Below are positions 10,633 through 64,000 of a stretch of 64,000 nt of DNA, one piece after another. A program made the translations under genes and the position numbers. The stretch is from Pristiophorus japonicus (taxonomy: Eukaryota), in assembly GCF_044704955.1 (NCBI RefSeq), contig NC_091999.1, positions 56,606,001 to 56,670,000 of the forward strand, given 5' to 3'. Every line of letters starts with the position of its first letter. The stretch's first letter is position 1. The notes under the pieces are model-generated. The model had not been told where the DNA came from. It did no database searches and saw only the letters and a list, made by a program, of their open reading frames with translations.

Positions 10633-10932
10633 CTGGCATTGTGATGGCCCAGACCGACACACCACTTCGAACCTCGCAGTTAATTGTGCTGCTCCCCACC
10701 TCTGACTTGGTGATGGTTAACTGGCTGCTCTGGGTGTAGGTTCCCTTCTTGTTGAGCACTGGCGGGTAGGTCTTCAATCCAGTGGTGATCGGCTCTTTAT
10801 CTTTCTTCCAGAAAAGGCTGGTGATGTCGGGGGAGTAGTCCATTGCCAAACAGCCGTACGTGATGAAGCCATCGGTGCTGGGTTGTTCACAGGAGGAGAG
10901 CAGGGCGTAGTGGGTGGAGGGAAACGGTGTTA
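10633..10932 (-). CDS. IGHM: IgM CH1 exon
   Basis: tctttcccAG acceptor and G|GTTAGT donor; 300 nt, phase 1-1; SSC (light-chain-linking Cys), [29 protein letters not shown] and second Cys present. Confidence 0.95.
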
Positions 10933-11699
10933 CTGGGAAAGAATGGCCCATTGAACAAGTTAGACTCTGTAATCCGTGCTTATAAAAGAAATAAACAACT
11001 CGAACTTTGACTGCAGAATAAACTAATTCCACCATTTCCCCATCAAAGACTACACGGGCATTTGAGCTTCTGTCAGTTCCATCATAAGCACCTGTAGATG
11101 CCCCTGTCAGGAACACACCTCTCTATCCCCGAGCTCTATCACATTACACAACAATAACTTTTACATAACTCGTGAATAAAGAATCCTTCATTGGATCATA
11201 CAATCGAAGAACAGAGACGTGTTCCTGCTATTTCGGCCATCATTTATTTCTCAATCAGCACGATTTTTGGTCCTTTATTGAAGTTTGAGGAAATTTACTC
11301 TGTGCACATTGCCTGCGGCGTATCCCTACAAAACAACAGTGACTGCACTTCAAAGTAACAGCGGAATTCCTGCCTCGCACGTCAACAAAAAACCCTCTAA
11401 ATTTGCCTGCCACATAATTCAACAGGTAGCATTTCCATAGTCTAGTTTCTAAGATTCAGTCTGTAGATGAATCGCGATTGAGTTGAATCTCTCCCTTTCT
11501 TTCTCAGTATTTGAGGGAGAGCGATGTCCTTCAGCGCACTGTGATCTGGACTCTATCCCATCCTATTGAATGCATGTCTCTTGAGTTTCCTCCTCCCTGC
11601 CACTCAATTAATAATCCGAATAAAATACCATTCCAAATTCCGGTTAATTGGAAGTTTCTCCTTAAATGGCCCATTTCAATTCCCATTGTTGTTCTTGTT

Positions 11700-12610
11700 A
11701 TGTAACAATGACGTGGACTTGGGTATAGGGAATGCAATTTCGAATTTAGAAGATAATGCAAAACCTGGCAACGTAGCCAATAGTGAACATGATAGCAGCA
11801 GACTCCATGAGGAGACCGATGGTCCAGTGAAATGGGGCGGAACATGGCAATTGCAATTTAATGCGAATCATTGAGAAGCGATGCACATTGGATGGAAGAT
11901 GGAGAGGCAGTATAATCTAAATAGCATTATTTTGAGGGGATGCACGAACAGAGATATCTAGATGTACATATTCACAAATCTTTGAAGGGGGCAGGGCAAA
12001 CTGGTTAGACTATTATGAAAGCGTATGGGATACTTGAATTTGTAAATGGGGCATTGACTACAAAAACAAGGCGGTTATGCTAAACTTACAGATCACGTGT
12101 TAGACCTCAGCTGGAGTATTGTGCACAATTCTGGCACAACAATGTAGGAAGGATGTCAAGCCCTTGGGGAGTGTAGAGGGGAGGCTTTTACCAGCATGAT
12201 GCCAGGGATGGGATCTTCAGTTATGTGGAGAGATTGGAGAAGCTGGGATGTTCTCCTTAGAGCAGAGGTTAAGAGGAGACCTAAGAGAGATATTCAACAT
12301 TATGACAGGTTTTGATAGAGCAAGTAGGGAGAAACTGCTTTCGCTGGAAAGAAGGTGCGTAACCAAAGGTCACAGATTTAAAATAATTGGCAGAAGATCG
12401 AAAGGGGAAATTGGGGTAATTTTTTCACACAGAGGGTTGTTAATTTCAGGAATGCTCCAGGCAGTTCATCCTGTACGTCAGGAGGATTCATTGCACGTTT
12501 ACAAGGAAAACCCTGGGGAGTTGGACTAAATTGGACAGCTCTTTCAGAGCCGGCACAGGCACGATGCCTGAATGGTCTTTTCAGTGTTGTGAGATGCTAT
12601 CATTCTACAC
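11700..12610 (+). mobile_element. Degenerate CR1 LINE (RT C-terminal half plus 3' UTR)
   Basis: RPQLEYCAQFW- and LRGDLREIF-type motifs, heavily disrupted. Confidence 0.85.
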
Positions 12611-13319
12611 GAGTCAGTGGGAATAGTTCTTCTAGATTTAATGGAAGGAAACGCTTCATATTTTGGACACCTCTACCAGATCTACTTTTATTGTTCATTA
12701 GAATGAAAGAGGATATTTCAGAAAAGGATCTTATAAATCTGACGCAAATTAGTCAATCACATGCTGTTATAAAGGCTTAAAGTTCATTGTGAATGATGAC
12801 TTATTGCAGGTTCACTCTATCTCTTTAAATGTTTCACAGAATTGCAGGTCAGTGACTGTGTGCCTTGTCTTGTGACCCAGGCCAATAGCTGCATCTCGTC
12901 ATAGTTTGTCCCTGCCTTTAACCTTCTCAGGAAGAATTGAACAACATAATGTTTCTAAACATGAGGTCCTCATGACGGTTATTTGAAGCGGCAGTCCCGA
13001 TATTCTCCTTTTAAATTGTGAAAATATCTTACAGCCTCCCAACAGATCAGAACAGGCGCTGCTTTCTGGAGCGTTATTCACTTCCAGAAACGGTTTATTC
13101 TGAAAGTGAGCTGAGGATCAGGCCAATCGTGTTCAATAGTAATCTGATGCTCAAAATGTTCAAACATTAATAACTCATTAAAAATTGGGCATTTTTTTCA
13201 GAAAGAATATAAACATCAATGAATGTGCATTGTTTAATCTGGGCAATGGGACGATTTATTGTATATATCTGGCACGAGCAGTTTATCTGCTATCTGTTAG
13301 ACGCAGATAACGGTGTCTT

Positions 13320-14110
13320 GAATACTGCCTGACCAAGCACTCTCAGGTCAGATATAGCACAGATAAGAGAGCAAAGCTCCCGCTATGCTGCCGTGTGGGT
13401 CAGGACAGGTATAGCAAGGGTTGCACACAGAGTAATACGATATCTGTGCTATCCCGTCAAACATTCCCAGCTGAAGTACTGCAGAGATGTGCTACGAAAT
13501 GTCTTCCCTTAAAATGCGTTATCAAAATGACCGATTAGATTAAGCACACTTATCACAAGTACAAATAAAAGCTTCCGATATACTGATCCATTAAAGCGCA
13601 CCAGCTCACCTAGAGCTCTGATTAAATAGAAGACCAATCTATATTGAAGGACCCAATTAAGCTCCACGTCCTTGTAAATAAAAGGTTAAATACTGATTAA
13701 AGCTATCTCTGCAATGTCCCATCAATCACTGCCATTTAAGGTAAAGCACGGGTTAGTTGCAGAGAAAAGCTCCCTCTTCACTGTCCCATCAAACACTCCC
13801 AAGACAGGTACAGAGTAAAGATCCCTCTACAGTGTCCCATTAAACATTCTCAGGGCAGGTACAACATGGGTCAAGATACAGAGTAAAGCTCCATCTACAC
13901 TGTCCCATCAACACTCCTAGGGCACGTAGAGCTTGGGCTAAATACAGAGTAACACTCCCTCTACACTGTCCCATCAAACACTCCTAGGGCACCTACAACA
14001 TGGGCTAGATACAGAGTAAAGCTCCTTCTGCCCTGTCCCATCAAACACTCCCAGGGCAGGTACTACCGGGTTAGAAACTGATTAAAGCTCCTTCTACTGT
14101 CTCCCCATGG
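13320..14110. repeat. ~65-bp satellite CAGGGCAGGTACAGCACGGGTTAGATACAGAGTAAAGCTCCCTCTACACTGTCCCATCAAACACTCC
   Basis: Tandem copies here. The family recurs at 16910-17180, 28290-28500, 42095-42435, 52200-52470 and 62100-62380, and inverted at ~2030-2095. Confidence 0.9.
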
Positions 14111-17100
14111 TGTTTCGGAACTGCTTCTTCTGACTATCAAAATCTGGATTAACGATCTCATTTCTGCGGAGACTCCACAACCTCAAAGTCAATCTTTCAC
14201 GTTTCTCACCTATGCCAGTTTCTTAAATAACTGAGTTAAATGACACTCCCCGCAATACAGGATCACAATCCAGAAGTTTTACAACCCGTCAGGAGGACTC
14301 CTGATTCTCACACAGTGAGCAGGCGCACATAAACAGAACAGACACAAACTGTGCTCCAGGCAGAGAGACCAGTTTAATCTATTAATTTCAATGAAGTTGT
14401 TTGATTTCTAATTTATTTCTTGCCAATTTCCAACCACCTCAACTCTGCAGATTCTTTGAAATTAAACTGATATTAATTTGAGAGACTCTTCAACATCCAG
14501 CCATTTTTCCATCTCTGTCAACTATCTTGTAAACCGTGTAAAAATTAACTTCCCTGAAAGTAAGTATCTGGAAATAATTCACATTCCACGGGAATTTGCT
14601 GCCCGTCACACGGGACTCGGTGACATATTCAGAATGTCACAATCCAGGGGACATCTACATTGAAACCTGATCACCCACTGATTTTATATATTTTCATCAG
14701 TAAATATAACCTGTAAAATCATCGAGGCAAAACAGGATGTTAATTCACTAAAATCTGCAGTGACACCTTATCAAACTAAGCACAGCCGGGTTATACATGC
14801 ATTGTTTTGTAAATTAACTTATGAATTAATTAAACATTATCTGCAACCCTTGAGATTTTGCAATAATTGTAATACTGACCAGTATGCAACACAATTGTAA
14901 TGGATCGTTTATGTTTAATGAATTAGCACTGATGGTACTGTCTAAGTTAATGTTCATGTTAGCTGATTATTGAAAATAATCTGAGTGCCTATCTGGCTCT
15001 TCCTGCTCAGAAGCACACGTACCTGGAACTTTTGAAATTAAATTAACGTTCTTGAATTTCAGCCTTACTAATACAATTAATTAATAATAATATTAAAACC
15101 TTTTTCTGCCTGGTAACTTGTGATATATTAAGATTAAATTAACTTACAATAACAATTCATGATATTAAAATATTAAGCAGCATATTAATACATAAATATT
15201 CAGAAAAATACCTTATTTTTACTTAAATCGAATCAAATTGGAATAATTGACAGTAATCACGCAGTTCTACCACTGTCCCGCTCTCGACCGACATCTTTTT
15301 AAACTCTGCATGTTTCTGATATAGCAAAAACTGCGTCTATTCGCAGAGAACATTTCACATGATGGATTTAGGGGTGGACTATTTTAAATAGTTCTCTGTC
15401 CAGCCGAGGTCACAACTCCGATGGTTGTAAACCGCTTGTTTACTAATACTGGAATCTCGAGCTGAAATATTCTCCTCAATCTTAAACTCCAAAAATGGTT
15501 TTATTAATTAAAACCCACCCGTGCAGCTTAAAGTCAGTAGCAGAGCCTCCGCTGTTTAATAACACAGACAATCTTTTATAGTTCACTCCCGTTATTCACA
15601 TAATGCCCGCAAATTAATGATTAAATATATTCTGCTACTTCTTCAAAATAGTTTCCAGAATGGTCATTGTAAAACTGGAGGATAACAAATCATTCAGACC
15701 ATATGCGACACTGAAACTGAATGAGCAAATGGAGGTGAGACTTTGTTCATCAATTTAACATTCATAAGAATTAAACATAACTCTCAGATATTATCTATGC
15801 TTTGTCCACCGTTCTATTCCGCATACAGCAGCGTTTTGGGAGGTAGGATTTTGTTTTAAATTCAAAAGAAGATGGACCTTTTGTAAGTAAATTAATCTGC
15901 TTGAATTTCAATGGATTATTTGCCTGTCTCCAGCCATACGCAGTCGGAACCTGCCTTGAATTTAAATATAATTACAAGAACAATTTTTTGACTGCCAGCG
16001 ACGCCTGTCTGTCAGCTTTTGGTCTTGCAAAGTGTTCAATATTAATTTAGTAATAATTCTATCAAACAACACACAATATTGATTCAATAACAATTTTCGG
16101 CTGCACAGTGAGAATGTCATACCCCGGCAGATATATTAAATTGACAAAATGCAATTTGCAACACGGCTTTAAGTTATAATTAATTGCACTCAGTCAATGT
16201 GGTTCCAGGGATAAGGTACTTCAGTTATGTGGATTGATTGGACGAGCTGGGGTTGTTCTCCTTAGAGCAGAGAAGTTTGAGATGAGACTTGATAGAGGTG
16301 TTCAGAATCAAAAGGGGTCGAGACAGAGCAACTGGAGAGAAGGTGTTCCCATTGGCGGAAGGGTCGAGAACAGAGGATACAGATTTGTCGCATTGGCAGA
16401 ACAACCTAAATCGACACGAGGAAAACTTAGGATCTGGAATGCACTGCCTGAAAGAGTGGTGGAGACAGATTCAATCATGGCATGGAATTGGATAAGTTCC
16501 TGAAGGAAGAACAATCACAGGGCTACGGAAAAGGGCGGGGGAGTGGACTAGCTGAAATACTCTTGCAGAGAGCGGCATGGTCTATATGGGCCGAATGACT
16601 CTCACACCTGCATGACAGGAACGAATAAAACAATGTGCCTGTATCAGTACTTACTGCACTAGGCCCTACCTCAGTCATTACAGTAATAGAACTATTAATA
16701 TTGTACTAGGCCCTGTCTCATCTTTTACTGGAATAGGCAATGACTTTATTCCTATTACACAAGTCCCTGTCTCTGTTTATATTAAACTAGACAAGGACAC
16801 TGTTTATATTACTCTAGCCCCATCATTTCACTTTACTAAACGAGACAATTTCTCTGTTTATGTTAATTTAGACCCTGTCACCGTTATTAATGCACTAAAC
16901 ACTGTAACTCACGGGTCAGGTACAGCATGCGTCAGATAAAGAGTAAACCGACCTCTACATTTTAATCAAACATTCCCAGGACAGGTACAGTACGGGTTAG
17001 ATACAGTTTAAAGCTCTCACGACTCTGTCCCATCAAACACTCCCATGACAGGTGCAGAATGTGCCAGATCCAGAGTAAAGCGACCTCTACAGTGTCCCAT

Positions 17101-18054
17101 CAAACACTCCCACCGCAGGTAGAGCACAGTTTAAATACAGAGTAAAGCTCTCCCTACACTGTCCTATCAAACGCTCCCAGATCGTTTAATGCACAGGTCA
17201 CATCCTGGATTAAATTTCCCTCTGCGCATTCCAATCAAGTTGGTTCGAGGCGTATCATTAGGGTTCAAGGAAAACTTTTGTTAGATTTTAATATCTAGTT
17301 GTGGGAGATGGCCAATTATCCATTCGTGAGAGACAATACAAAAAGTGGAAATAGGAGATGGAGAGGATGCAGGGAATCTCCACTGACACATTTGTAATGT
17401 TACTATAGACGGTGAATCGAATCTTTCACCATTCTGTCCCTGGGTATCATCTTTACTTTATTCTCCTATAATTTAAGAAATGTCCCCCCAAAAATTGCTA
17501 CTGGAATCCGTTGAGAAATTTCATTTCTTTCTCGGTTTATTTCTATGCTGTATTGGTGGGGAAACATTTAAATTGTTTCTGTCACTCAATACTCTAATCT
17601 GGGACTTCTATTTCTGTGTTTATTTACATAACCGCCTCACTGGTTCCCATGAAGTGTTCATGGCAGCAAAATCAGATCAACAGAGTCACTTATTGATTCG
17701 TCTCCTCTCACAACAATTGTTTATTTAAAAAATATTGAATGTTGGTACAACATTAATAGAAAAATCCACAACAGTGAGGTTTGCTTCAGTTTTGTTCAAT
17801 TAGAACAGATGTCATTTATATCAAAGAAATACATAGTAAAATTAATAATTCGGTTTTGAAAGATCTACTGCCGAAATTAATGCAACATCTCTGAACAGGC
17901 TGCTATTCCACTGGATCTCCACTTAGTGTAAGATTTAACCCATTGAAACTAAACAAGTAAAACCAGTGAACAGAGGAGTGTCCTACAATCACATTAATAT
18001 CTGAGCTTTTCACATATATCAACTTGTATTTACATGTGTTGACATTTAGAAATA

Positions 18055-18505
18055 CCCTGCATTTATATAGTGCCTTTCTTGACCTCATTATGTCCCAAAG
18101 TGCTTTACAGCCAATGAATTACTTTGGAATGTGCTCACTGTTGTAATGTAGGAAACGTGGCAGCCAATGTGTGCACAGCAAGCTCCCACAAAGAGCATGA
18201 AATATTGATCAAATAATTTGTTTTTCAGATGTTGGTTGAAGTATAAATATTTGCGCTGGAAACCCTGGAGAACTCATCTGCTCTTCAATATAGTGCCATG
18301 AATCCCTTAAATCCAACTGAGCAGAAAGATGAGGCCTCATCTTATTGTCTGCCCTGAAAGACGGTATCTCGGACCGTGCAGCACTCCCTCAGAACTGGCA
18401 CCGGGCTTGTCGGCATAGATTATTGGCTCAGGTCTCTGGAATGTGGTTTAGTATCTGTGACCTTCTGAATCACAGGCGAGAGTCATCCCACTGAGCCGAG
18501 GCTTG
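18055..18505 (-). mobile_element. DeuSINE copy carried in the duplication unit (paralogs ~29368-29815, 43275-43720, 53350-53790, 63255-63700)
   Basis: Reverse complement of the element at 9305-9725 (tgcatttatatagtgcctttc...cagccaatgaattactttgg...ttgtaatgtaggaaac). Confidence 0.8.
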
Positions 18506-19826
18506 AACATATCACAGCTTGTACTTTAAAATGTTCACATTCAGCTCATCGTGTCTGACGTTCAGTGCCTGCGCCCAGTCTTACACTGATCGATTTATTA
18601 TCAGGGCGAGTTCTCTTATCTTGCCCGGGATGTCATTCCCACACTGGTATTTTCACTGGATCCATATAAAAGTGACGCCGACTCCGCAAGGAACATCTGG
18701 ATGTGCCCTAGGCAGAAGGGCTCACGGAACTTGAGTTTTACACTGTGTGAGCTGCACCATCAAAGCAGCTGAAAGCTGGGATTGTTCTCCTTAGAGCCGA
18801 GCGCGTTATGGGCCACTTAATAGAGGTTTTCCAAATCATGAAGAGTTTTGATCGGGTAAATTGGGAGATACTCCATCACTCCCCCCACCATCCCTCTCGC
18901 CCTCCACCCGTCTCTCCTTACTTCTCTCCATTCATTCTTACCTCCGTTCATACCTCCAGCCCTCCCTCCATCAATCGCTCCCCCCCTGCAGCCATCCCTC
19001 CCTCCCTCTGTCCATCCCTCCACCATTCCTCCATACTCCACCATACTTCATCCCTCCCTTGTTCCACTCCACCCTCCACTCTTTCCTCCCGCAGCCCAAA
19101 CGATTATTATTGTTCCCTTTGCAATGTTTCAGCTTGATCGATGACGATTCCTCAGCTGGAATTTTCTGCACCCAATTCCTTCAGCGGGGTTTCATATGTA
19201 TTAATAAGTAAGAGAGAGCGCGATGGCAAATATATATATTGAAGCCCCCACGCTAAATAAAACTGACAAGAAATGAAATGCTTTCCTTTCAGGAGAGGGA
19301 GTTGGCTGGGGAACCGGCACTGGGTAGAAATTCTGGTTGGGGCAGTCGCGATATCTTTCCTTTTTTAAATAAAAAAAATAAGATAACAATTTTAAAAAAA
19401 TTTCAAGACATCGTCGGCTTTCAGCTGCTCTTTTTTCCTCCGCCTTCTCGCGGTTGAGGACGGGCCTGTGGCCGCCTGGAGCTCGCTTCATTGTGTGTAC
19501 GGGACGGTAGGATTGAAGCTCTCACTACGTGGCCAGACTTGGAGAAGCTGGGGCTGTTCTCCTTACAGCAGAGAATGGTGAGGGGGTATTTACCAGATTG
19601 GTACCAGGGATGAATGACTAGAAACATTAGTTCAGCCCCAGCTGGAGTATTGTATCTAATTCTGGGCACCACACTTTAGGAAGGACGTGAAGACTTTCGA
19701 TGGAGTACAGAAGAGATTTACTGGAAATGTATCAGGGATGGGGGATTGAAATTATGTGGAGAGACTGGAGAAACTGGAGCTGTTCTCCTTAGATTAGAAA
19801 AGGTTAAGAGGAGATTTAGTAAATTA

Positions 19827-21203
19827 TAAGAACATAAGAACATAATAAAGAGGAGCAGGAGTGGGCCATACGACCCCTCGAGCCTACTGCGCCATTCAGT
19901 GTGATCATGGCTGATCTGACAATGGTCTCAGCTCCACTTCCACTTCCGCTCCCCATAGACCCTTATCCCCTTATCGTTTAAGAAACGGTCTATCTCTGTC
20001 TTAAATGTATTCAATATCCCACCTTCCACAGCTCTCTGAGGCAGCGAATTCCACAGATGTACAACCTCTGAGAGGAGAAATCTCTCCTCATCTCAGTTTT
20101 AAATGGGTGGCCCCTTCTTCTAAGATCGTGCCCTCGAGTTCTAGTCTCACCCATCAGTGGAAACATCCTCTCTTCATCCACCTTGTCAAGCCCCTTCATA
20201 ATCTAATACGTTTCGATAAGATCACCTCTCATTCTTCTGAATTCCAATGAGTAGAGGCCCAAACTACTCATCCTTTCCTCATAAGTCAAACCCTTCATCC
20301 CATGAATCAACCTAGTGAATCTTCTCTGAACTGCCTCCAAAGCACGTATATCCTTTTGTAAATATGGACTCCAAAACTGCATGCAGTATTCCAGATGTGG
20401 CCTCAGCAATACCTTATATAGCTGTAGCAAGGCTTACCTGCTTTTATACTCCATCCCCTTTGCAATGAAGACCAAAATACCATTGGCCTTCCTAATCACT
20501 TGCTGTACCTGCGTACTGTCCTTTTGTGTTTCATGCAAAATACCCCCAGGTCCCGCTGTACTGCGGCACTTTGCAATCTTTCTCCATTTAAATAATAATG
20601 CTCTTCGATTTTTTTCGGCCAAAGTGCATGCCCTCACACTTTACAACATTATACTCCAACTGCCAATTTTTTTCTCACTTACTTAGCCTGTCTATGTCTT
20701 TTTGCAGATTTCTTGTGTCCTCCTCTCACACTACTTTTACTCCCATCTTTTTAACGCCAGTAAACCTGGCTACGTTACACTCAGTCCCTTCTCCAAGTAG
20801 TTAATGTAGATTGTAATTAGTTGGGGTCGCAGCACTGATCCCTGCGGCATGCCATTAGTTACTGGTTGCCAATCAGAGAATGGACCATTTGTCCTGATTC
20901 TCTGTTCTTTGCTCCAATCCTCTATCCATGTTAATATATTAACCCCAGCCCCGTGAACTTTTATCTTGTGCAGTAACCTTTTATGTGGCACCTTGTCAAA
21001 TGTCTTCTGGAAGTCCAAAGCACCCTATCCAATGGTTCCCCTTTATCCACCCTGTTCGCTACATACTCAAGGAACTCCAGCAAATTTGTCAAACATGACT
21101 TCCCCTTCATAAATCCATGCTGACTTTGCCTCACCGAATTTTGCTTTTCCAAATGTCCTGCTGCTGCTTCATTAATAATGGACTCTGACATTTTCCCAAC
21201 CAA
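19827..21203 (-). mobile_element. CR1 LINE, 5'-truncated, antisense (paralog 31167-32553)
   Basis: QHGFMKGKSCLTNLLEF, DFQKTFDKVPH, PQGSVL, RPHLEYC motifs; (AAGAACAT)n 3' tail. Confidence 0.92.
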
Positions 21204-21629
21204 TATTATTACCAGGCATGAGGGACTTCAGTTAATATGTAGAAAGTGGAGAATATGGGATTGTTCTCCTTGGAGGAGAAAAGTCTAAGAGGAGATTTGA
21301 TAGATCTGTTTAAATTCATCAACGGTTTAGATAGAGTAAATAAATAGAAACTGTTGCAGATGTAAGGTGATTAACAAAAGAACCAGAGGCGATATTTGGA
21401 CGCAATTATCTATGCAACCACTGGTTAAGATTTGTATTGTACTGCCTGGTAGGGTGGTAGATATAGATTCAATAGTTTCCTTCAAAAAGAAATTGTACAA
21501 ATACTACAAGGAGGAAAAAATGCAGTGATATAGGGAAAGTGCACGGGAGTGGGACTAACTGGATTGTTCTTGGAAAGAGCCGGCGCAGACTCTGTGGGCT
21601 GAATTATCACCTTCTGTGCCATACTAATC

Positions 21630-24600: not shown

Positions 24601-24705
24601 CGGGCAGGGAAGTGCACCTGAGTCCATGATCAGATCAGCCATGATCTTATTCAATGGCGAGCAGGCTCGAGGTGGCCCACTCCTGTTCAGATTTCTAATG
24701 TTCTT
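21630..24705 (+). mobile_element. CR1 LINE ORF2 fragment (paralogs 36150-38162, 55752-57450) with a nested younger CR1
   Basis: KSPRPDGLHP, YLDFQKVFDMVPH, RMRGDLI motifs, with many frameshifts. Confidence 0.92.
23522..24577 (+). mobile_element. Young nested CR1 (near-intact RT C-terminus)
   Basis: SGVPQCSVLGPQLF..YINDLD..KFADDTKL..RPHLE; one stop at 24018-24020; (TATGTTTC)-type tail; empty site in unit 2 at ~38025-38035. Confidence 0.93.
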
Positions 24706-24709
24706 TTGC

Positions 24710-25075
24710 TTACATTACACTTGGCACTGTCTCTCTTAAATTACACTAGACGCTGTCTCTGTTCATATTACACTAGACGCTGTCACTATTTAAATTACAC
24801 TAGACCCTGTTTCTGTTTATATTACACTAGACCCTGTCTCTGTTTGTATTACACGAGACCGTGTCTCTGTTTCTTTTGCACTAGACCCTGTCTCTCTTTA
24901 TATTACACTAGACCCTGTCTCTCTTTATATACACTCGACCCTGTATCTCTTTATCTTACACTAGACCCTGTCTCTCTTTATATTACACTCGACCCTGTCT
25001 CTCTTTATATTACACTAGATCCTGTCTCTCTTTCTGTTACACTAGACCCTGTCTGCCTTTATGTTAAACTGGGCC
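24710..25075. repeat. 27-bp satellite TTATATTACACTAGACCCTGTCTCT(G/C)T (also 38165-39180, 45130-46600, 48690-49290, 57455-57710)
   Basis: Visible 27-nt period; source of the ITLDPVSLY / YYTRPCLSL ORFs. Confidence 0.95.
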
Positions 25076-25343
25076 ATGTATCCATTGACTTCATAAGACA
25101 ATGTCTGTTTGTGTCAACTGAGGCTCAGGGTGTCTCACTTTCTCCGCGGTCTCAGATAGTTTTGGGATGAACTCCCTCTCCAGGGACTATATATCTATTT
25201 ATTGTACAACAGATAGTTATTTTTGCCATGCGTCTGTTAGAGAGACAGAAGCTATATAGACGGTGGATAGATATTACTATAAATAAAGATATTTATGTGT
25301 GTCGGTAGGAGGATGCAATACTTTTTTTTGGTTGGAACATCAG

Positions 25344-27485: not shown

Positions 27486-27554
27486 ATACACCAGAGCCTG
27501 TCCTCAGTTATAACTACACAAGACACTGTTCCAGTTTATATAACCCCACACACC

Positions 27555-29896: not shown

Positions 29897-29968
29897 TCCG
29901 GTCCGTTTATTATCAGGGACGAGTTCTCCTATCTTGCCTGGGATGTCATTCCCACACTGGAATTTCCA
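29897..29968 (-). other. Conserved 72-nt exon-like block of the duplication unit (paralogs 18585-18655, 43804-43875, 53877-53948, 63784-63855)
   Basis: ccAG acceptor in 4/5 copies and GTAA(G/T) donor in 5/5; phase-0 frame WKFQCGNDIPGKIGELVPDNKRTG open in units 2-4. Confidence 0.4.
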
Positions 29969-39957: not shown

Positions 39958-39994
<37 letters not shown>

Positions 39995-50200: not shown

Positions 50201-50989
50201 AAAAATGAAAATGCATCTGTACCTGGCATGAGGTTAGCAAATCTGTAATTATCTAACTTATTGCTTCTCTCATTAAACCTAACCCCATCGCAGTTTTTAC
50301 TGGACAAGAGCCAGTCTTAGTTTATATGTTTGCTGTGGTCCACTTCCTTACCAGCAAAGTTGAAGCCAATAGAATAAAAAGGACAGTGGCAGCATGGATA
50401 TGAAATTGGTTGAGTGTCAGGAATCAAACAGTAGATTTTTTTGGACGATGGTAAGGTATACAGTGGTGTTCCGCAGCGACTGGTACTAGGAACTCTGCTT
50501 CTTTTGAGTTATATTCATGACATGGATTTTGGTATCTGGGGTACAATTTCAAAATTTTCAGCTGACTCAAAGCTTGGAAGCATAGTGAACAGTGAAGAGG
50601 ATAGTGATGGCTGCAAGAGGACATAGATGTGCTGGTGGAATGGGTGGACACGTGTCAAATAAAACGGAAAATTTTTTTAAGTGATACATTTTGATAGGAA
50701 GAAGGAGAGGCAAAATAAACGGAAGAGTAGAATTCTAAAGCGCGTGATGAACAGAACGACCTGGGGATATGTGTGCACAAATTATCGAAGGTGGCAGGGC
50801 AGGTTGAGAAAGTGCTTTAAAAAGCATACGGGATCCTGGGCTTCATTAATAGAGGCATAGAATACAAAAGCAATGATCAACCTGTATAAAACACTGGTTA
50901 GTCCGCAATTCAGTATTGTGTCCAATTCTGGGCACTGCACTTTAGGAAGTATGTGAAGGCCTGAGATAGGTTGCAGAAAACATTTACGT
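41214..50989. repeat. Segmental tandem duplication, unit 3 (~9.8 kb, middle ~45030-48690 replaced)
   Basis: Same flanking landmarks, different central segment. Confidence 0.92.
47672..48590 (-). mobile_element. CR1 LINE fragment, antisense, specific to unit 3
   Basis: ORF 47822-48382: KANGILAFI...RPNLEYC...RRMRG...WNSVP. Confidence 0.9.
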
Positions 50990-53900
50990 GTGGTTCCAGG
51001 GATAAGGTACTTCAGTTTTGTGGACAGACTGGAGAAGCTGGGGTTGTTCTTCCTAGAGCAGAGAAGGTTGAGATGAAATTTGAGAGAGGTATTCAGAATC
51101 ATTAGGGGTCTAGACAGATTAGCTGCCGAGAAACTGTTCCCATTGGCGTAAGAGTCGAGAACAGAGGACACAGATTTAAGGTGATTAGCAGGAGCACTAA
51201 AGGCGACATGGGGAAAGAGTTTTTAAGCATCGAGCGGTTAGGATCTGGAATGCACTGTCTGAAAGGGTGGTGGAGGCAGAGTCAATCATGGCATTACAAA
51301 TGGATTTGGATATGTAGCTGAAGGAAGAAAATTCACAGGGCTACGGGAAAGGACGTGGGAATAGACGAACTGAAATACTCTTGCAGAGAGCGGCACGGGC
51401 TATATGGGTCCAATGGCACTTTTATGTGCTATGACCATTCTATGATTGTATAATTACACCAGAGCCTGTCTCAGTTATTAGTATACTAGACACTGTTCCT
51501 GTTTATATTGCACCATCCATTAAAGATTCACTACCTCAACCATCGGCGGACCTTGTCTGCAGTGAGTATTAGCTACAAGATGCATTGCAGCAACTCGCCA
51601 AGACATCTTCGACAGCACTTTCCAAACCTATGACCTTTTCCACCTAGAAGGACAAGAGCAGCGGGATCATGGGAACACCATCACCTCCACGTACCCCTCC
51701 AAGTCACACACCATTCTGACTTGGAAATTTATTACGGTTCCTTCATAATTGCTGGGTCAAATTCGTGGAACCCCCTCCTTTACACTGTGGGAGTACCTTC
51801 ACCACACGGACTGCAAGCGGTTCAAGGTCGCAGTTCAACACCTGATTTTCAAGTCCAATTAGGGTTCGGCATTCAATGTTGGCCTTGCCAGCGACACCCA
51901 CATGCCAGGCATGAATAAAACACTGTCGCTGTATCAATAATTACTGCACTATGTCCTATCTCAGTTATTATTGCACTAGAGCTATTAATATTGTACTATG
52001 CCGTGTCTCAGATATTACTGGAATATGCCATGCCTTTGTTCCTATTACTTAGAACCATGTCTCTGCTTATAATAAACGAGACAAAGACACTGTTTTTATT
52101 ACACTAGCCCCATTCTTTCATGTTAAAAAACTCGGCCATGCCTCTGTTTATATTCAATAAGATCCTGTCTCTGTTATTACTGTACTAAACTCTGTAATTC
52201 ACAGGGCGCGTACAGCATGTGTCAGATCCAGAGTAATGCTAACGTTACACCGTTCCATCAAACACTCCCAGGGTAGGTACAGCTCGGGTTAGATACAGAA
52301 TAAAGCTCTCTGTCCCACTGTCCCATCAAACATTCCCAGGGCAGGTACGGCACGGGTTAGATACAGAGTAAAGCTCCCTCTACACCGTCCCATCAAACAT
52401 TCCCAGCGCCGGTACAGCACGGGTTAGATACAGTGTAAAGTTCTCTCTACTTTGTCCCATCAAAAAACTCCCAGATCATTTCATACACATGTCACATTTT
52501 GGATTAAAGCTACCTCTGCGCACTATCATCAACATGGTTTGAAGTATTTCAGTAGGGCTCAAGGAAAACGTTTGTTAGATATTGACATCGAGTTGTGGGG
52601 GGGAGGCCAATTATCCATTCTTGAGAGACAAGACATAAAGTGGAAACAGGGGAGGGAGAGGACACAGGAAATCTCCACTGTCACATTTGTGATGTCACTA
52701 TATATGGTGACTAGAATCTTTCCCAATTCTGACCGTGGGGATAATCTTTACTTTATTCTCCTATAATTTAGAAAAATGTACCAAAAAACAATTGTTGCTG
52801 GAATCTGTTGAGAGATTTGCATTTCTCTCTATCTTTACTTCTGTGCTGTGTTGGTGGGGAAACATTTATTGTGTTTCTGTCGCTCAATGCTCTAATCTGG
52901 GACTTCTATTTCTGTGTTTATTTACATAAACGCCTCACTGATTCCCATGAAGTGTTCATGGCAGCAAAATCAGATCAACAGAGTCACTTATTGATTCGTT
53001 TCATCTCACAACAAGGGCTTATTTTAAGAATATTGACATTTGGTACACAGATATATACATATCTCGATCTGTGAATTTGGCTTCAGTTTTGTTCAATTAG
53101 AGCAGATGTGTTTTATATCAAAGGGAATAAATTGCAAAATGAATAATTCAGTTCTGAAAGTTCTGCAGCTGAAATCAGTGGAACATCCCTGAACAGGCTA
53201 ATATTCCACTGGATCTCCATCTATTGGAAGATTTAACCCATTGAAACTAAATAAGTTAAACCAGTGACCAGAGGAGTGCCCGACAATCACAGTAATATCT
53301 GAGCTTTTCACATATCGGAACGTCTATTTTCAAATGTTGACATTTAGAAACACCTTGCAGCGACTTTCCTGACCTCATGTTGTCCCAAACAGCTTTACAG
53401 CCAATTATTTTTTCCGGAAGTGTGGTCACTGTTGTAATGTAGGAAATGTGGCAGCCAATTTATGCACAGCAAGATCCCACAAACACCAATGAAATAATGA
53501 TCGGATAATCTATGTATCAGATGTTGGTTGAGGGATAGGTTTTTGCGCGGGAAACTGTGGAGAACTCCTCTGCTCTTTAGGATAGTACCATTAGTCCTTT
53601 ATATCCAGCTGAGTGGGAAGCTGGGGCCTCAGTTTAATGCCTGCCCCAAAAGACGGCACATCTGACCATGCAGCATTCCCTCAGTACTGGCATCGGATGT
53701 GTCAGCACAGCTTAAGGGCTCAGGTCTCTGGAGTGGGGTTTAGTATCTGTGACCTTCTGAGTCAGAGGCGAAAGTGATCCCACTGAACCGAGGCTTGAAC
53801 ATATCACAGATTGTATATTAAAATGTTGCCATTCAGCTCATCGTGTCTGAAGTTCAAGACCTGAGCCCAGTCTTACACCGCTCCATTTATTATCAGGGGC

Positions 53901-56792
53901 GAGTTCTCTTATCTTGCCTGGGATGTCATTCCCACGCTGGGATTTCCACTGGGTCGAAATAAAAGTGTCAGCGATTCCGCAGGGTACATCTGGAAGTGCC
54001 CGAGGCAAAAGGACTCAAGGAACTTGAGTTTTACACTGTGTGAGCTGCACAATCAAAGTAGCTGGAAGCTGGGAGTGTTCTCCTTAGAGCCGAGCAGGTT
54101 ATGTGCCACTTAATTGAGGTGCTAAAAATTATGAAGAGTTTTGATCGGGTAAACTGGGAGATATTACATCACTCCCTCCTACCATCCCTTCCTCCATCCA
54201 CCCGTATCTCCTTCCCTCCCTCCCTTCATCCCTCCTTCGCTTCATCCCAGCATCCCCCCCTCCCATCTATCGCTCCCTCCCTGGATCCACCGCTCCCTGC
54301 CTCTGTCCACACTAAACCCATTCTTCACATCAATCCTCCCTTGCTCCACTCCCCCCTTCCTCAAACCCTCCCTACATCAATCACTCCCGCCCTGCACTCA
54401 TCCCTCGCCCCGTCCATTCCTCCACCCCTCCATCACTCCACCCCTACTTGCTCCACTCGTCCGTCCCTCCATCCCTCCCTCAGCCCAACAGATTCTTGTT
54501 TTTCCCTTTTGAGTGTTTCTGATTCCATCGATGAGGATTCCTCACCTGGAATTTTCTGCACCCAATTCCTTCACCGGGCTTTCATATATATTAACAATTA
54601 AAAGAGCGAGCGATGGCAAATATTTATATTTAACCTCCCACCACCTCCCCACCTAAAAAGACTGACAAGAAATGAAATGGTGACCTTTCCGGAGAGGGAG
54701 TTGGCTGGGGAACTGGCACTGGGTAGAAGTTCTAGCTGGGGCAGTGAGGATATCTTTTCTGCTTATAAATTAAATAAATAAGGGTAACAGTTTGAAAAAT
54801 TGTTTTTAGACATCCGCGACTTTCAGCTGCTCCTTTTTCCTGCCCCTTCTCGCTATTGAAGATGGGCCAGTTCCTGCCTGGAGCTCGATGACATTGTGTG
54901 TACTGGAAGGTAGGACGCAAGCTCTCGTTACACGAACATCTTGTAGAATCTGGGGCTGTTCTTCTTACAGCAGAGAAGGGTGAGGGGAGATTTACCAGAT
55001 TGGCACCAAGGATGAAAGACTAGAACCACGAGTTCGGCCCCAGCTGGAGGATTGTGTCCAATTCTGGGCACCACACTTTAGGAAGGACGTGAAGACTGTC
55101 GGGAGGGTGCAGAAGAGAATTACTGGAAATGCATCAGGGATGGGGGATTAAAATTATGTGGAAAGACTGGAGAAGCTGGGGTTGTTTTCCTTGGAGTAGA
55201 GAAGGTTAAGATGAAATTCAGTGGAATAGCAGCGGGAATGAAGCACTTCAATTAATGTGGAGAGACAGGAGTAGATGGGATTGTTCTCCTTGGAGTGGAC
55301 AAGGTTAAGGGCATCTTTAATAGAATGTTACCAGGGATGAGGGCCGTCAGTTAATGTGGAGAGATAGGAAAAGATGCGATTCTCCTCCTTAGAGGAGAGA
55401 AGTCTAAGAGCAGATTTGAAAGACCAGATTAAAATCATCAAGAGTTTAGATAGAGTAAATAAATAGAAGCTTTTGCAGGTGTGAGGTGATTGACAAAAGA
55501 ACCAAACGCGATATGTGGACAAACTTCTTTACGCGGCCACTGGTTAGGATTTGGAGTGTACTGCCTGATAGGGTGGTAGATATAGATTGAATAGTAGCCT
55601 TCAAAATTAAATTGTGTAAATACTTGAAGGAGATAAAAATGCAGTGATATAGCGAAAGAGCGGCTGAGTGATACTAACTGGATTGTTCTTCAAAAGAGCC
55701 GGCACAGGCTCTATGGGCTGAATTGCCACCTTCTGTGCTCTACTAATCTACGAATGACCATCACAATCACTAAGGAGGTGGTACTCAGTAGGATATTGGG
55801 ACTAAAGGCAGATAATTCCCCTGGACCTGATGATTTGCAGCCTAAAGGCTTAAGAAAAGTAGCGGCAGGGTTTGTGGATGCATTGCTTGTAATTTACCAA
55901 AATTGCCCGGAGTCTGAGGAGGTCCCAGCAGATTGCAAAACTGCAAATGTAACGCCACTATTTAAAAAATGAATCAGACAAAAAACAGGAAACTATAGAC
56001 CAGTTAGCCTAACATCTGTAGTTGGGAAAATGTTGGAGCTCATTATTAAAGAAGCAGTAGCAGGACATTTGGAAAAGCGAAATTCGGTCAGGCAGAGTCA
56101 GCATGGATTTATGATTGATAAATTTGCTGGAGTTCTTTGAGGATATAACGAACAGGGAGGATAAAGCGCAACGAGTGGATGTGGTGCGTTTGGACTTCCA
56201 GAAGGCATTTGACAAGGTGCCACGTAAAAGGTTATTGCACAAGATAAAAGTTCACGGGGTTGGGGGTAATATATTAGCATGGATAGCGGATTGGCTAACT
56301 AACAGAAAACAGAGTGTCGGGCTAAATGGTTCATTCTCTGTTTGGCAACCAGTAACTAGTGTGGTGCCGCAGGGATCAGTGTACAATCTAAATAAATGAT
56401 TTGGAAGAAGGGACTGAGTGTAACGATGCCAAGTTTGTTGATGATACAAAGATGGGAGGAAAAGCAATGTGTGAGGAGGACACAAGAAATCTGCAAAAGT
56501 TCACAGACAGGCTAAGTTAGTGGTCAAAAATTTGGCAGATGGTGTATAATGTTGGAAAGTGCGAGGTCATGCACTTTGGCAGAAAAAAACAAAGAGCAAG
56601 TTATTATTTAAATGGAGAAAAATTGCAAATTGTCGCAGGACTGCGGGACCGGAGGGTACTTGTGCATGAAAGACAAAAGGATACTATGCAGGTACAGCAA
56701 GTGATCAGGAAGGCCAATAGTATCTTGGCCTTTATTGCAAAGGGGATGGAGTATAAAAGCAGGGACGGCTTTCTACAGCTATATCTATCTTA

Positions 56793-56853
56793 AGATTTGA
56801 ACACGGATCGTTGAATTCAAAGTCCAGAGTGCTCACCATTACACCATTGAACC
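56793..56853 (-). pseudogene. 3'-truncated tRNA-Gln(TTG) retrocopy inserted in a CR1
   Basis: Minus strand GGTTCAATGGTGTAATGGTGAGCACTCTGGACTTTGAATTCAACGATCCGTGTTCAAATCT matches vertebrate tRNA-Gln (A box, CT-TTG-AA loop, GTTCAAAT B box); 3' T-stem and acceptor strand missing. Confidence 0.88.
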
Positions 56854-57906
56854 AACACCATAAGGTATCGGTGATGCCACACCTGGAATACTGCGTGCAG
56901 TTTTGGTTTCCATATTTAAGAAACGATTTACTTGCTTCGGAGCCCGTTCAGAAAAGGTTCACTAGGTTGATTTCGGGGAAGAGGGGTTTGACTTATGAGG
57001 AAAGGTTGAGTAGGTTGGGCCTCTATTCATTGGAATTCAGAAGAATGAGAGGTGATCTTATCGAAACGTATAAGATAATCAGGGGGCTTGGCAGAGTGGA
57101 TGCAGAGAGGATATTTCCACTCACAGGGCAACATAAAACAAGGGGACATAGTCTCAGAATAAGGGGCCGTCTATTTAAAATTGAGATGAGGAGGAATTTC
57201 TTCTCTCAGTGGGTTGTAAATCTATGAAATGTTCTGTCCCAGTGAGCTGTGGAGGCTAGGTTATTGAATATATTTAAGGCGGTGATAGACAGATCTTTGT
57301 GCGATAAGGGAATAAAGGGTTATGGGGGGCAGGCAGAGAAGTGGAGCTGAGTCAATGATCTGATCAGCCATGAGCTTATTCAATGGCGGAGCAGGCTCGA
57401 GCGGTCAGGTGGTCTCTTGCTGCTCCTATTTCTTATGTTCTTGTGTTCTTAAGTTTATATTACACGAGGCAATGTCTCCGTTTTTAATACACTACACCTT
57501 GTCCATGTTTATATTACACTAGACCCTGTCTTTGTTTAAATTTCACTACATCATGTCTCTGTTTATATTACACTGCGCCTTGTCTGCTTAAATTTCACTG
57601 GGCTCTGTCTCTGTTTAAATGGCACTATAACCTGTCTCTGTTTATATTACACGAGGCCCTGTATCCTTTGATGTTACACTAGGCCCTGTGTCGCTTTATG
57701 TTACACTGGGCCATATATCCATTGCGCTTCACAGGACAATGTTTGTTTGTGTGAGACGATGCTCAGTATGTCTCACTTTTGTCTCGGTCTCAGATATTTT
57801 TGGGATAAACACCCACTCCAGGCTCTATATTTCAATTTATTGCACCAACGGACCCTGTCTCAGTTTTTTCGGCACTTGACCATGCGTCTGTTAGCTAGAC
57901 AGAAGA

Positions 57907-58351
57907 CCATCATTATAGGCAGTTGCTCGGAATCAAGGAAGACTTGCTTCCACTCTTAAAATCAGTTCTTAGGTGGCTGAACAGTCCAATTACAGGAATT
58001 ACAGTCTCTGTCACAGTGGGACAGATAGTCATTGAAGGAAGAGATGGGTGGGAATGGTTTGCCATGCGCTCTTTCCACTGCCTGCACTTGATTTCTGCAT
58101 GCTCTCCGCGATGAGACTCCAAGGCTCAGCACCCTCCCGGATGCACTTTCTCCACTTAGCACGGTTTTTGGCCTGGGACTCTCAGGTGTCAGTGGGGATG
58201 TTGCACCTTTATCAGGGAGGCTTTGAGCGTGTCCTTGTAACATCCGCGACCAGGCCAACATCCCCAACATTGAAGAACTGACCACACTTGATCAGCTCCG
58301 CTGGGCAGGCCACATAGTTTGCATGCCAGGACACGAGAATGCCAAAGCAAC
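57907..58351 (-). mobile_element. RTE-clade LINE 3' fragment with inverted 5' segment
   Basis: Minus-strand 3' end (...IGLFSHLRT; YKDTLKASL) joined at ~58240 to plus-strand DQANIPNIEELTTLDQLRWAGHIV; TSD ACAGAAGA at 57899-906 and 58352-359; single site in units 1 and 2. Confidence 0.85.
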
Positions 58352-58919
58352 ACAGAAGATATATAGACGCTGGAGAGATATTAATATAAATAAAGATATA
58401 CATGTGTGTGGGTAGGAGGATGCAATACTTTTTTGGTTGGAACATATGTTTCGATTCCTTAACAGCTATCAAAGCTTGTGTGCAATGCCTAATTGATCTG
58501 GTGTCATGTCGTTAATATTTGTGCTGAAAGGATGGAGTGAATCTTGTAACAATCTCCCAGAGATGGACTGGTATTGAGGGACAAGACTGAATGTTGGCAA
58601 TAGTGCACTGCACTTTGCACTACTTAGTGGCACACTCTGTGTTAAAGGTTACTAATTCACACTTGTGGTGTGCTGTGCCAATTTCTCTCAGTTAATTAAT
58701 GATAAGAATTGTTTTTCCTGCAATATTTTCTCTGGAGCTGTCACGTGACCCACTGGTTGTGTCAGATGGAGCCTGGAACCGTGACCTCACAGCACCACTG
58801 GATGGGCGGCCTCAGGGTCCTAATGTCTTCAAAAACTGTATCGCTCATTTGGTTAAGACGAACAACTGAAAATAGCACACACAAAGTGTTCGCTATATGT
58901 GTCTGTGTGTGTATATCTT

Positions 58920-59512
58920 TTCAGAGAGGCGTTGAGGGTGTCCTTGTAACGCTTCCATTGCCCACCTTTCGCTCGTTTGACGTGAGTTCCGAGCAGAGTG
59001 CATGCTTTGGGAGTCTAGTGTCTGGCATGCGAACAGTGTGGCCTGCCCAGCGGAGCTGATCAAGTGTGGTCAGTGCTGCAATGATGGGGATGTTGGCCTG
59101 GTCGAGGACGCTAACGTTGGTGCGTCTGTTCTCCTAAGAGATTTTCAGGATCTTGCGGAGACATCGTTGGTGGTATTTCACCAGCGGCTTGAGGGTTCTA
59201 CTCGTCATGGTCCATGTCTCTGAGGCATACAGCAGGGCCAAAGACAAAAGACTGCCCTATGTGGAGGAAGTGCATGCGGGAATGTGCCGAGCACCTCGAG
59301 TCTTATCGCTGAGAGCATGCAGAAAGCAAGCACAGGCAGCGGAATGAACGTGCGGCAAACCTGTCCCACACCACGTCGCCCCTTTCCCTCAACGGCTCTC
59401 TGTCCCACCAGTGACAGGAACTGTGGTTCTCGTATTGGACTGTTCAGCCACCTAAGGTCTCATTTTTAAAGTGAATGCAAGTCTTCCTCGATTCCGAGGG
59501 ACTGCCTATGAT
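58920..59512 (+). mobile_element. Second RTE-clade LINE fragment with inverted 5' segment, inserted in (TG)n
   Basis: 58920-59235 is antisense RT C-terminus (QLRWAGH...YKDTLNASL); 59236-59512 is sense (CPTSDRNCGSRIGLFSHLRSH, then gagggactgcctatgatg tail). Confidence 0.82.
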
Positions 59513-59537
59513 GTGTGTGTGTATGTGTGCGTGTGTG

Positions 59538-59571
<34 letters not shown>

Positions 59572-60785
59572 TGTGTATGTGTGTGTGTATAAAACACATC
59601 ATTTATAATATGTGCAAGTGCTATCAACAAAGATAAATGATTAGCTTCAACCATTACTTTTTTTCCTTTAAATGTTATTCTGCAGCTAATGGTAGGTCGT
59701 TTATTACCTTTAATATTTATTGATAACACATTGTCTTGCGTGTTCTGCTTTAGAAAGTGATGTCACACTGACCATTCTGTTACCAAGGTGACCATGTCTG
59801 TTTGCAGTGTTCAGTGGGAAAGGGGATTAATTCACACCGAGGATAATGAGCAGACCACCACCAGTCTCTGAGCTTCTTTGTCCAGTGATCACCTCACCGC
59901 CAGACAGAATGCCCTGTTATACACCTCGAGTGTATGATTATTGGTGCAAGTGATGGCCAACATGAAACTGCACCTGTACCTGGCATACGGTTAATAAATC
60001 TGCAATTATTGTTTCTCTCATTACACCAGACTCTGTCGCAGTTTTTACTGCACAAGACCCAGTCTCAGTTTATATGGTTGATGTGGTGGACTTCCAAAAG
60101 GCGTTTGATAAAGTATCTTGAAAATATCCTTTGCAGAAAAGTTGAATCCTATAGAATAAAAGGGACAGTGGCGGCAGGGTATGAAATTGGCTGAGTGACA
60201 GGAATCAGAGAGTAGTGGTTTTTTTTGGGATTGGAGGAAGGTATATAGTGGAGTTCCGCAGCGGTTGTCATTAGGAACACTGTTTTTCATGATGCATATT
60301 CAGTACTTAGACTTGGGTGTACGGGCACAATTTTAAAATTTACAGCTGGCATCAAACTTGAAAGCATAGTGAACAGTGAGGAGGATAATAATGACTGCAA
60401 GATGGCATTGACATGCTGGTGGAATGGGTGGACACGTGGCAAATTAAACGCAGAAAATTGTGAAGTGATAAATTTTGGTAAGAAGAACGAGGAGAGGCAA
60501 AATAAACTAAAGGATACGATTCTAAAGGATGCATGAACGCAGTGAACTGGGGGTATACATGCACAACTCATTGAATGTGGCAGAGGCGGCTGAGAATGTG
60601 GCTAAAAAGCATACGGTACCCTGGGCTTCATAATTAGAGGCATAGAATACAAACAAAAGGATGTTATGATGAATATTTATAAAACACTGGTTCAGCCTCA
60701 ACTAGAGTATTGGGTCCAATTCTGGGCACCTCATTTTAGGAAAGATGTGAAGGCCTTAGAGAGGGTTCATAAAAGATTTACAAGT

Positions 60786-63700
60786 GTGAGTCCAGGGATA
60801 AAGGACTTCGGTTACGTGGTAGTCTTGGGAAGCTGGGGTTGTTCTCTGTAGAATAAAAAAGATTGAGAGGAGATTTGATAAAGGTGTTTAGAAAAATAAA
60901 CTGTCAAGACAGAATAGATAGAGAGAAACTGTTCCCATTGGCGGAAGGGTCGAGAACAGAGGACCACAGATTTAAGGTGATTGGCAGCAGAGCCAAAGGC
61001 GACATGAGGAAAACGTTTTTAAACAGCGAGCGGTTAGGATCTGGAATGCACTACCTGAAAGGGTGGTGGAGGCAGAGTCAATCATGGCATTGCAAAGAGA
61101 ACTGGGTAAGTACCTGCAGGAAGAAAATTCACAGGGCTACGGGAAAGGGTGGAGTGTGGACTAGCTGAAATACTCTCGCAGAGAGCGGCACGGGCAACAT
61201 GGGCCTAATGGCCCTCTTCTGTGCTGTAACTATTCTATGATTTTGTAATACATCAGAGCCTGTCTCAGTTATTAATACCCTAGACCATGCTCCAGTTTAT
61301 ATTACCCCATCCACCACGTTAAATATTTATTCCCTCCACCACCGGCACACCATGTCTGCAGGGATTACTATCTACACGATATATTGCAACAACTCGCAAA
61401 GACATCTTCGACAGCAGTTTCCAAACCTACGATTTCTTCAACCTACAAGGACAAGTGCAGCAGCCTCGTGGGAACACCACCACCTCAAAGTTCACTCCAA
61501 ATCACACAACATCCTGACTAGGAAATTTATTACCGTCCCTTCATAGTCGCTGGGTATAATTCATGGAACCCACTCCCTAACACTGTGGGGGTCCCTTCAC
61601 CACACGGAGAGCAGCGGTTCAAGGTGGCCGCACATGACCTCCTTCTCAAGGCCAATTATGGATAGAGAATCAATGTTAGCCTCGTCAGCGGCACCCACAC
61701 CCACATGCCAGGAACCAATTAAAGTATCACTGTATCAGTAATTACGACACAAGGCTCCACCTCAGTTATTATTGCAGTAGAGCTACTAATATTATTCTAG
61801 GCTCTGACTCAGATATTGCTGGAATGTGCCATGCCTTTGTTTCTATTACACAATAACCTGAATCTGTTTATATTAAACTAGACAAGGACACTGTTTATAT
61901 TACACTGGCCCCATCCTTTCACATTACTAAACTAGACCATGTCTCTGTTTATGTTAGTCTAGACCCTGTCACCATTATTACTGCATGAGACCATGCCTCT
62001 GTTTCTATTCAACTAGACCCTGTTTCTGCTTTTATTATAATTCACCATGTCAGTGTTTATATTACACTGCACCCTGCCTCAGCTATTACTACACTCAACC
62101 CAGTAACTCCCAGGGCAGGTACAGCATATGTCAGATACAGAGTAAGTCTCCCTCTACACCGTCCCATCAAATATTCCCAGTGCCGGTGCAGCACGGGTTG
62201 CAAACAGAGTAAATCTTCCTCTGCATGTTCCCATCAAACACACCCAGGGCAGGTACAACACGGTGTTAGAAACAGAGTAAAGCTCCCTCTACACGGTCCC
62301 ATCAAACACACCCAGGGCAGGTATAGCACGGGTTAAATACAGTGTAAAGATCCCTCTGCACTGTTCCATCAAACAATCCCAGATAATTTAATACACGTGT
62401 CATATTTTGGATGAATGCTCCTTCTGTGCAACCCAATCAATTTGTTCCGAGGCATATCATTGGGGCTCAAGGAAAACCTTTGTTAGATGTTGACATCTAG
62501 TTGTGCGGGAAGGCCAATTATCTCTTCTTGAGGGACAAGATGGAAAGTGGAAATAGGAGAGGGAGAGGATACAGGAAATCTCCACTGTCATATTTGTGAT
62601 GTTGCTGTGTACGGTGATTAGAATCTTTCCCCATTTTGTCCGTGGATATCATCTTTACTTTATTCTCCGATAATTTAGTGAAATGTACCAAAAAACAATT
62701 GTTGCTGGAATATGTTGAGAGATTTGCATTTCTCTCTCTCTTTATTTCTGTGCTGTGTTGGTGGGGGCACATTTATTGTGTTTCCGTCGCTCAATACTCT
62801 AATCTGGGACTTCTATTTCTCTGATTATTTACATAAACGACTCACTGGTTCCCATGAAGTGTTCATGGCAGCAGAATCAGATTAACAGAGTCAGTTATTG
62901 ATTAGTTTCAACTCACAACAAGCAATTATTTTAAGAATATTGACAGTTGATACAACATTAATAGAAATGTGTCGAACAATGATGTTGGCTTCAGTTTTGT
63001 TCAATTAAAACAGATGTGATTTTTATCAAAGCGATTAAATATTAAAATGAATAATTCAGTTCTAAATATTCTGCTGCTGGGATCATCTATGAACAGGCTG
63101 CTATTCCACTGGATCTCCATTTAGTGGAGGATTTAACCTTTTGAAACTAAACAAGTTAAACCAGTGACCAGAGGAAAGTCCTACAATCACTTTAATATCT
63201 GAACTTTTCACATAATGCAAATTGTATTTTCAAATGTTGAAATTTAGCAACAGCGTGCATTTATATATCGCCTATCATGACTTCATGTTGTCACAAAGTG
63301 CTTTACAGCCAATTAATTACTTTGGAAGTGTGGTAACTGTTGCAATGTAGGAAATGGGGCAGCCAATTTGTGCACAGCAAGAGACCAGAAAAAGCAATGA
63401 AATAATGATCAGATAATCAATTTTTCAGAAGTTGCTTGAGGGTTACATATTTGACCTTGAAACCATGGAGAACTCCTCTGCTCTTTAACAGAGTGCCATG
63501 AGTCCTTTAAATCCAACTGAGTTGGAATATGGGCCTCAGTTTAATGTCTGCCCCGAAAGATGGCACATATGACCGTGCAGCACGACCTCAGTACTGGCAC
63601 TGCGCATGTCGGCATAGATTTTGTGCTCAGGCCTCTGGAGTGGGTTTAGAATCTGTGACATTCTGAGTCAGGAGCCGAGAGCGACCACACTGAGCCGAGG

Positions 63701-64000
63701 CTTGAACATATCACAGCTTGTATTTTTTAAAATTTCCATTCAGCTCATCGTGTCTGAAGTTGAGGTCCTGAGACCAGAATTACACTGATCCATTTATTAT
63801 CAGGGGCCAGTTCTCTTTTCTTGCCTGGGATGTCATTCCCACACTAGGATTTACACTGGGTCCATATAAAAGTGTCGGCAATTCCGCAAGGAACATCTCG
63901 AAGTGCCCCAGGCAGAAGGACTCATGGAACCTGAGTTTTACCCTCTGTGAGCTACAGCATCAGAGCAGCTGGAAGCTGGGACTGTTCTCCTTAGAGCCGA
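60786..64000. repeat. Segmental tandem duplication, unit 5 (partial, runs off the window)
   Basis: Same landmark order up to the window end. Confidence 0.93.

Follow-up and report, generated by a model that had tools for sequence, protein, structure and literature searches.

The IgM genes of the nurse shark are organised as miniloci with V, two D and J upstream of the constant region, J being situated 6.3-6.8 kb from C-mu1, and pseudogenes of these miniloci are placed in Groups 6-8, according to the portion of the published account drawn on here (PMC2435157). Exchange between such clusters in B cells, termed inter-cluster switching, is credited to Zhu 2012 and Zhang 2013 in the sections used of later reviews (PMC4279169, PMC4588147, PMC5192425), and is described in two of them as proceeding without S regions or cryptic promoters (PMC4279169, PMC4588147). 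Promoters are apparently tied to V segments only (PMC5192425, in part), and RAG-like joining of shark Ig genes in the germline has also been described (PMC2193156, in part). Constant-region exons parted from a working V are likewise presented in excerpts on catfish, both as Ig-mu pseudogenes and as a V-less secreted IgD (PMC5192425).

The stretch of DNA analysed here, referred to as the window, comprises 64,000 nucleotides (C23:56,606,001-56,670,000) of a 5.9-Gb genome. Compared with the nurse shark miniloci as covered in that source, its C-mu region has the same CH1-CH4, secretory tail, TM1 and TM2, it is similarly one of many dispersed clusters of which many are dead, and J lies at a similar distance from CH1 in the closest sister clusters (~6.7 kb, against 6.3-6.8 kb in nurse shark). 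In contrast to the nurse shark pseudogenes, which hybridize with a VH probe, the window copy is without any V, D or J (PMC2435157). No V-less shark C-mu was found in a literature search by title and start of abstract, most subscription papers lying outside that search, and nothing on V-less C regions was present in the covered portion of PMC12227049. We consider it probable (at roughly 0.84) that this IgM constant region, lacking leader, V, D and J and carrying a CH2 frameshift, is an ordinary birth-and-death pseudogene that was made by one inherited non-homologous deletion.

Constant region and the missing V(D)J head

Six C-mu exons were identified on the minus strand, and the intact splice sites reported for them in an earlier note were confirmed as AG/GT. 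The exons of CH1 (10633..10932) and CH3 (7591..7899) are open in frame and match the Pfam C1-set family, as does that of CH4 with the secretory tail (6299..6690, ending in CQ-stop), which also matches IgM constant chains in the PDB (E ~1e-48). The Pfam scan covered CH1, CH3 and CH4; CH2 (9858..10176) was assigned from alignment to sister clusters and measures 319 bp versus 318 bp in these, with a shifted frame. An internal donor for the membrane form is situated in CH4 at 6,360 on the minus strand and an AATAAA near 6,255-6,260, followed by exons TM1 (3485..3612) and TM2 (3336..3344, two codons and a stop). The protein of TM1 is the same as in the sisters, bar one sister with a frameshift. C1-set exons, a tail with a penultimate Cys, TM1 and TM2 are the attributes of an elasmobranch IgM constant region, and all were found.

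The retained 3’ part of the J-C intron (10933..16196, minus strand, 5.26 kb) differs from that of the sisters by ~2% substitutions, and contains a 67-bp repeat at 13.7-14.1 kb with a 38-bp repeat nearby. A patch rich in AGCT, resembling an S region, was noted at 12.9-13.9 kb (11 per kb versus 2-4). It overlaps degenerate copies of the 67-bp repeat and, since this repeat is also present in every unit of the upstream array described below, the patch was dropped as a specific S-region signal.

Neither V nor J was found upstream of these exons, in agreement with the earlier note. Over the window and the next 200 kb, motif scans for V or J were empty, tblastn with the V of a sister gave a best E of 0.065, and blastn with the DNA of the sister's head gave zero matches. 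Genome-wide, the first 100 places matching the J pattern included none close to the locus, and the closest upstream V on the same strand lies 1.62 Mb off among the matches listed (best 150 of 701 candidates). J and V are situated ~7-9 kb from CH1 in 10/10 sister clusters fetched, and a functional IgM minilocus has V, D and J with their RSS within ~10 kb upstream of CH1; the window copy has no such set. The accompanying claim that no RSS is present requires qualification for one RSS-like site at 14,311 (CACAGTG, 24-base spacer). This site was rejected as the RSS of a gene segment, as it adjoins no segment and is common to headed sisters, occurring at the equivalent place in 7/10 of them.

The subfamily of the window cluster includes seven headed sisters. 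No orphan head of this subfamily was found among the matches listed, and the lost piece of intron is present in seven copies at ≥98% identity. Every one of these adjoins its own CH1, indicating that the head was deleted and not moved, so that of the two fates suggested previously deletion is upheld and displacement is not.

All seven of these sisters were observed to share one germline D-J join, in which some bases are apparently untemplated, and a different germline D-J join was seen at C23:57.09 Mb. As the seven headed sisters are joined in this manner, the lost head was likely joined also. Clusters with unjoined D and J were identified at C23:24.11 Mb (piece 7500-7960) and 54.89 Mb (piece 7650-8110), in both of which the J RSS has a spacer of 12, the D has spacers of 12 at the 5’ and 22 at the 3’ side, and the first D appears decayed. 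In the usual IgM of horned and nurse shark, D2 is 12/12 and J has a spacer of 22-23. The resulting V23-12D22-12J order of these two clusters is unlike that arrangement, and nothing on this order was found in a literature search.

Exon decay and other headless copies

The exons had been regarded as near-intact, a description that does not fit CH1 and CH2. A private insertion of one base is present in CH2 at ~9,923, absent from 6/6 sisters, and the spliced CH1-CH2 product meets a stop after 199 residues. The open reading frame from CH1 to CH4 of a functional minilocus is therefore broken; a CH1-CH3-CH4 frame is open if CH2 is skipped. Compared to six sisters, the exons carry 11 private replacements and 7 private silent changes, with 7 of the replacements and one of the silent changes falling in CH1. 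Of these eight private CH1 changes, five are C to T when read on the coding strand, the numbers being small.

A neutral model based on the introns gave 16.8 expected replacements for all exons, from which the 11 observed do not differ significantly (P 0.09). When split post hoc, and with local substitution rates varying about twofold, CH2-TM1 showed 4 replacements against an expectation of 13.3 (P 0.003) and CH1 showed 7 against 3.5 (P 0.06). Of all the results, the CH2-TM1 deficit speaks most strongly against a history in which the copy was dead throughout, although it may mean no more than that the copy stayed functional for part of its own branch. Unpolarised counts hinted that the headless C region mutates faster, which was rejected on polarising with outgroups (83 vs 78 non-exon changes, P 0.75), the C half having a normal branch length of ~1.1%. 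The same test on the right flank gave 62 vs 38 (P 0.02), an excess ascribed to the mosaic flanks described below.

Other copies were surveyed with a CH1 search in which 150 of 445 candidates were scored and the best 97 matches, mostly on C23, were used. No V match within 30 kb was found for 11 of these 97; one of them, C25:3292409, was taken off the count due to the presence of a frameshifted V, leaving 10 of the best 97 C-mu copies as headless. Upstream of the nine other than the window copy no V or J was found, with 20 kb searched for six and 50 kb for three. Homology of the intron ends ~0.35 kb from CH1, at 3.0 and 4.3 kb (one nested family), at 5.3 kb (the window copy) and at 6.0 kb, and these differing endpoints point to at least four separate origins. 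A stop or frameshift is carried by 9/10 headless copies (8/9 without the window copy), and in-frame stops were counted in 36 of the best 97 CH1 matches, 32/87 among the headed ones.

At C1198:1029499, a C-mu lacking V was observed in which CH1-CH4 and TM1 are apparently open. Its intron homology stops ~6 kb upstream of CH1 and gives way to >40 kb of 50-bp, 65-bp and AG satellites. The description of an intron interrupted by an array suits this copy better than it suits the window, and the head of this copy may sit beyond the satellites. Four broken V-less C regions, C3062:471019 and C23:61444608 among them, form a family with a common upstream flank, which in two of the four holds a 7-transmembrane receptor frame ~11 kb from CH1. 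The copy at C23:61444608 has a headed cluster 55 kb upstream of it that is oriented alike, and CH1 carries stops in both. Broken pol fragments of retroviral appearance, which we take from their motifs to be RNase H/integrase-like, were seen in the upstream flank at C23:28.26 Mb, ~15 kb from CH1. Three V without a CH1 match within 30 kb downstream were noted among the matches listed (C23:23119698, C3770:406506 and C31:1524170), representing possible tailless clusters, the mirror case.

The earlier note had offered three options for the constant region, namely a recent pseudogene, a sterile-transcript unit or an acceptor for inter-cluster switching, of which the first is the best fit. In the last of these, a foreign VDJ would be joined into the retained intron in an AID-dependent manner and CH2 would be skipped. 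The C region and its intron remnant are the type of substrate that a switching join would need, with 5.26 kb of the intron retained and no splice site lost, and the in-frame CH1-CH3-CH4 and the low number of CH2-TM1 replacements are also in its favour. However, normal splicing leads to the stop after 199 residues, the damage is heaviest in CH1, nine of the ten V-less C regions are broken, and the private changes have no AID-hotspot excess (WRC 1.9% versus other non-CpG C 1.7%). The covered sections of the switching reviews (PMC4279169, PMC4588147, PMC5192425) name no dedicated V-less acceptor, and the window copy is frameshifted. The CH2 frameshift and the decay of CH1 weaken this option, and an acceptor role is improbable for this locus. 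It is just as doubtful that V-less C-mu, with their at least four origins, are dedicated acceptors for AID-driven inter-cluster switching, the window copy giving rise to a CH2-skipped three-domain IgM.

Deletion junction and upstream flank

Mapping of the breakpoint by alignment to intact paralogous clusters, as had been proposed, gave a clean gap. Window positions 577-16,196 align at 96.5% with the headed sister at C23:16.15 Mb, and 16,198-75,861 align further upstream in the same sister at 98.4-98.9%. The sequence missing relative to this closest sister (C23:16158080-16202498, 44,419 bp) comprises the last 1.5 kb of the intron, J, D, V, the leader and ~40 kb of flank; relative to other sisters the deletion is ~17-44 kb, because flank length differs between them. 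The abrupt junction previously placed near 16,199 was located at 16196..16198. Its left break, at 16,196, lies in unique J-C intron ~1.5 kb past J, its right break, at 16,198, lies in the middle of an upstream LINE, and between the two is one extra base, the A at 16,197, with no counterpart on either parent side. Introns that are kept, colinearity with an intact paralogue around the gap and an inactivating lesion together characterise an unprocessed pseudogene formed by deletion, and all three are present here.

The ancestral upstream flank (16198..22208) begins within the 3’ part of this LINE, presumably of CR1 type judging from its motif, and is followed by the remaining array of 10-14 kb units (22209..64000), five of which lie within the window and are 78-83% alike. 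The closest intact sister has eight units, of which the deleted stretch contains three, and the junction thus falls mid-array and not at its start as had been claimed. The array is 98-99% identical in intact sisters. When positions 16,200-18,200 were used as a query (best 40 of 14,921 candidates scored, 37 other places followed), an array unit was found 23-56 kb upstream of a headed CH1 at 34/37 of these places, a span of distances indicating that the flank turns over. The array is the old upstream flank and predates the loss of the head.

From ~22.2 kb onwards, and over 90-110 kb, the flank has ~99.8% identity to those of two other clusters, C3501 and C23:27.8 Mb. The divergence from these two is ~2% in the sequence close to the gene and ~8% in the downstream flank. 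This reflects either a recent exchange between clusters, making the flank a mosaic, or an assembly mis-join, 6 kb from the junction.

Such a setting is prone to mis-joins and no read was seen across the junction, in keeping with the view that the junction or the frameshift is an error of assembly among near-identical duplicated clusters. Against this, the switch point at 22.2 kb is 6 kb off the junction, and a mis-join there would still leave no head. Private changes occur at 7-20 per kb to the left of the junction and 5.6-12 per kb over 6 kb to its right, both sides match none of the six sisters compared, and neither side is therefore a copy of another sister examined. The joint also has no common sequence on which an assembler overlap could form, and its pattern has a single occurrence in the genome with one mismatch allowed. 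In public contigs of one sample, the sequence at 16,196 continues towards a head and no piece listed spans the junction; the same contigs are without subfamily-wide alleles at several sites and contigs show presence only, so that they weigh neither for nor against the joint. An assembly error is considered unlikely.

Removal of the head by RAG, acting in a germ cell on cryptic signals, has precedent in the germline RAG-like joining known in sharks (PMC2193156, in the portion used), to which the D-J join common to all seven sisters is alike, and a CAC-started heptamer-like word is situated ≤10 bases from each break. These words have at least 7 mismatches out of 16, the best value for any RSS near either break, and neither cut is at a heptamer border, that on the left being 10 bases off and that on the right within the word. 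The junction that removed the head is therefore without RSS geometry, unlike the germline-joined genes, no 12/23 pair with cuts at heptamer borders was found, and this mechanism is largely refuted. The cause favoured by the earlier note, in which array expansion or homologous recombination in CR1 removed or displaced the head, agrees with a right break inside a LINE copy and the 23-56 kb variation in CH1-array distance, but is very unlikely given a left break in non-repetitive intron without CR1 homology (a LINE is absent from this site in 7/7 sisters inspected), an array older than the loss and shared with intact sisters, a displaced head that was not found, and the absence of repeat homology at both breaks or of a hybrid repeat at the joint.

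Within 1 kb around each break, no homology between the two was found (best blast E 0.43, longest common word 5 bases). Breaks with neither homology nor RSS suggest end-joining as the likely mechanism. In the preferred reading of a pseudogene made by deletion, two germline breaks would have been end-joined, whether these lay in a single copy or in two sister copies that were nearly identical. Loss of the V-linked promoter would then have released the exons from use, and CH2 would have gained its frameshift and CH1 its replacements, the order of deletion and frameshift being possible either way.

Implications for shark IgM clusters

The C region of the window showed neither a promoter nor a first exon that could stand in for the lost one. 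This copy, with its broken frame, thereby differs from the V-less IgD of catfish, which is expressed according to the excerpt used (PMC5192425). If V-less acceptors were nonetheless real, they would represent a living intermediate between the clusters of sharks and the tetrapod layout of one VDJ and many C, and the cleanest case would be the apparently intact V-less copy on C1198. Since a C region that has no V of its own depends on a trans event to become part of a VDJ transcript, inter-cluster switching could be tested with allele-specific reads from such copies, free of any background arising at the locus.

As approximately 1 in 10 C-mu copies is headless among the best 97, counts of C regions overstate the number of working genes. 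The window copy provides a well-mapped case of the death of a shark IgM cluster, by segmental duplication, a likely non-homologous loss of the head, and decay.
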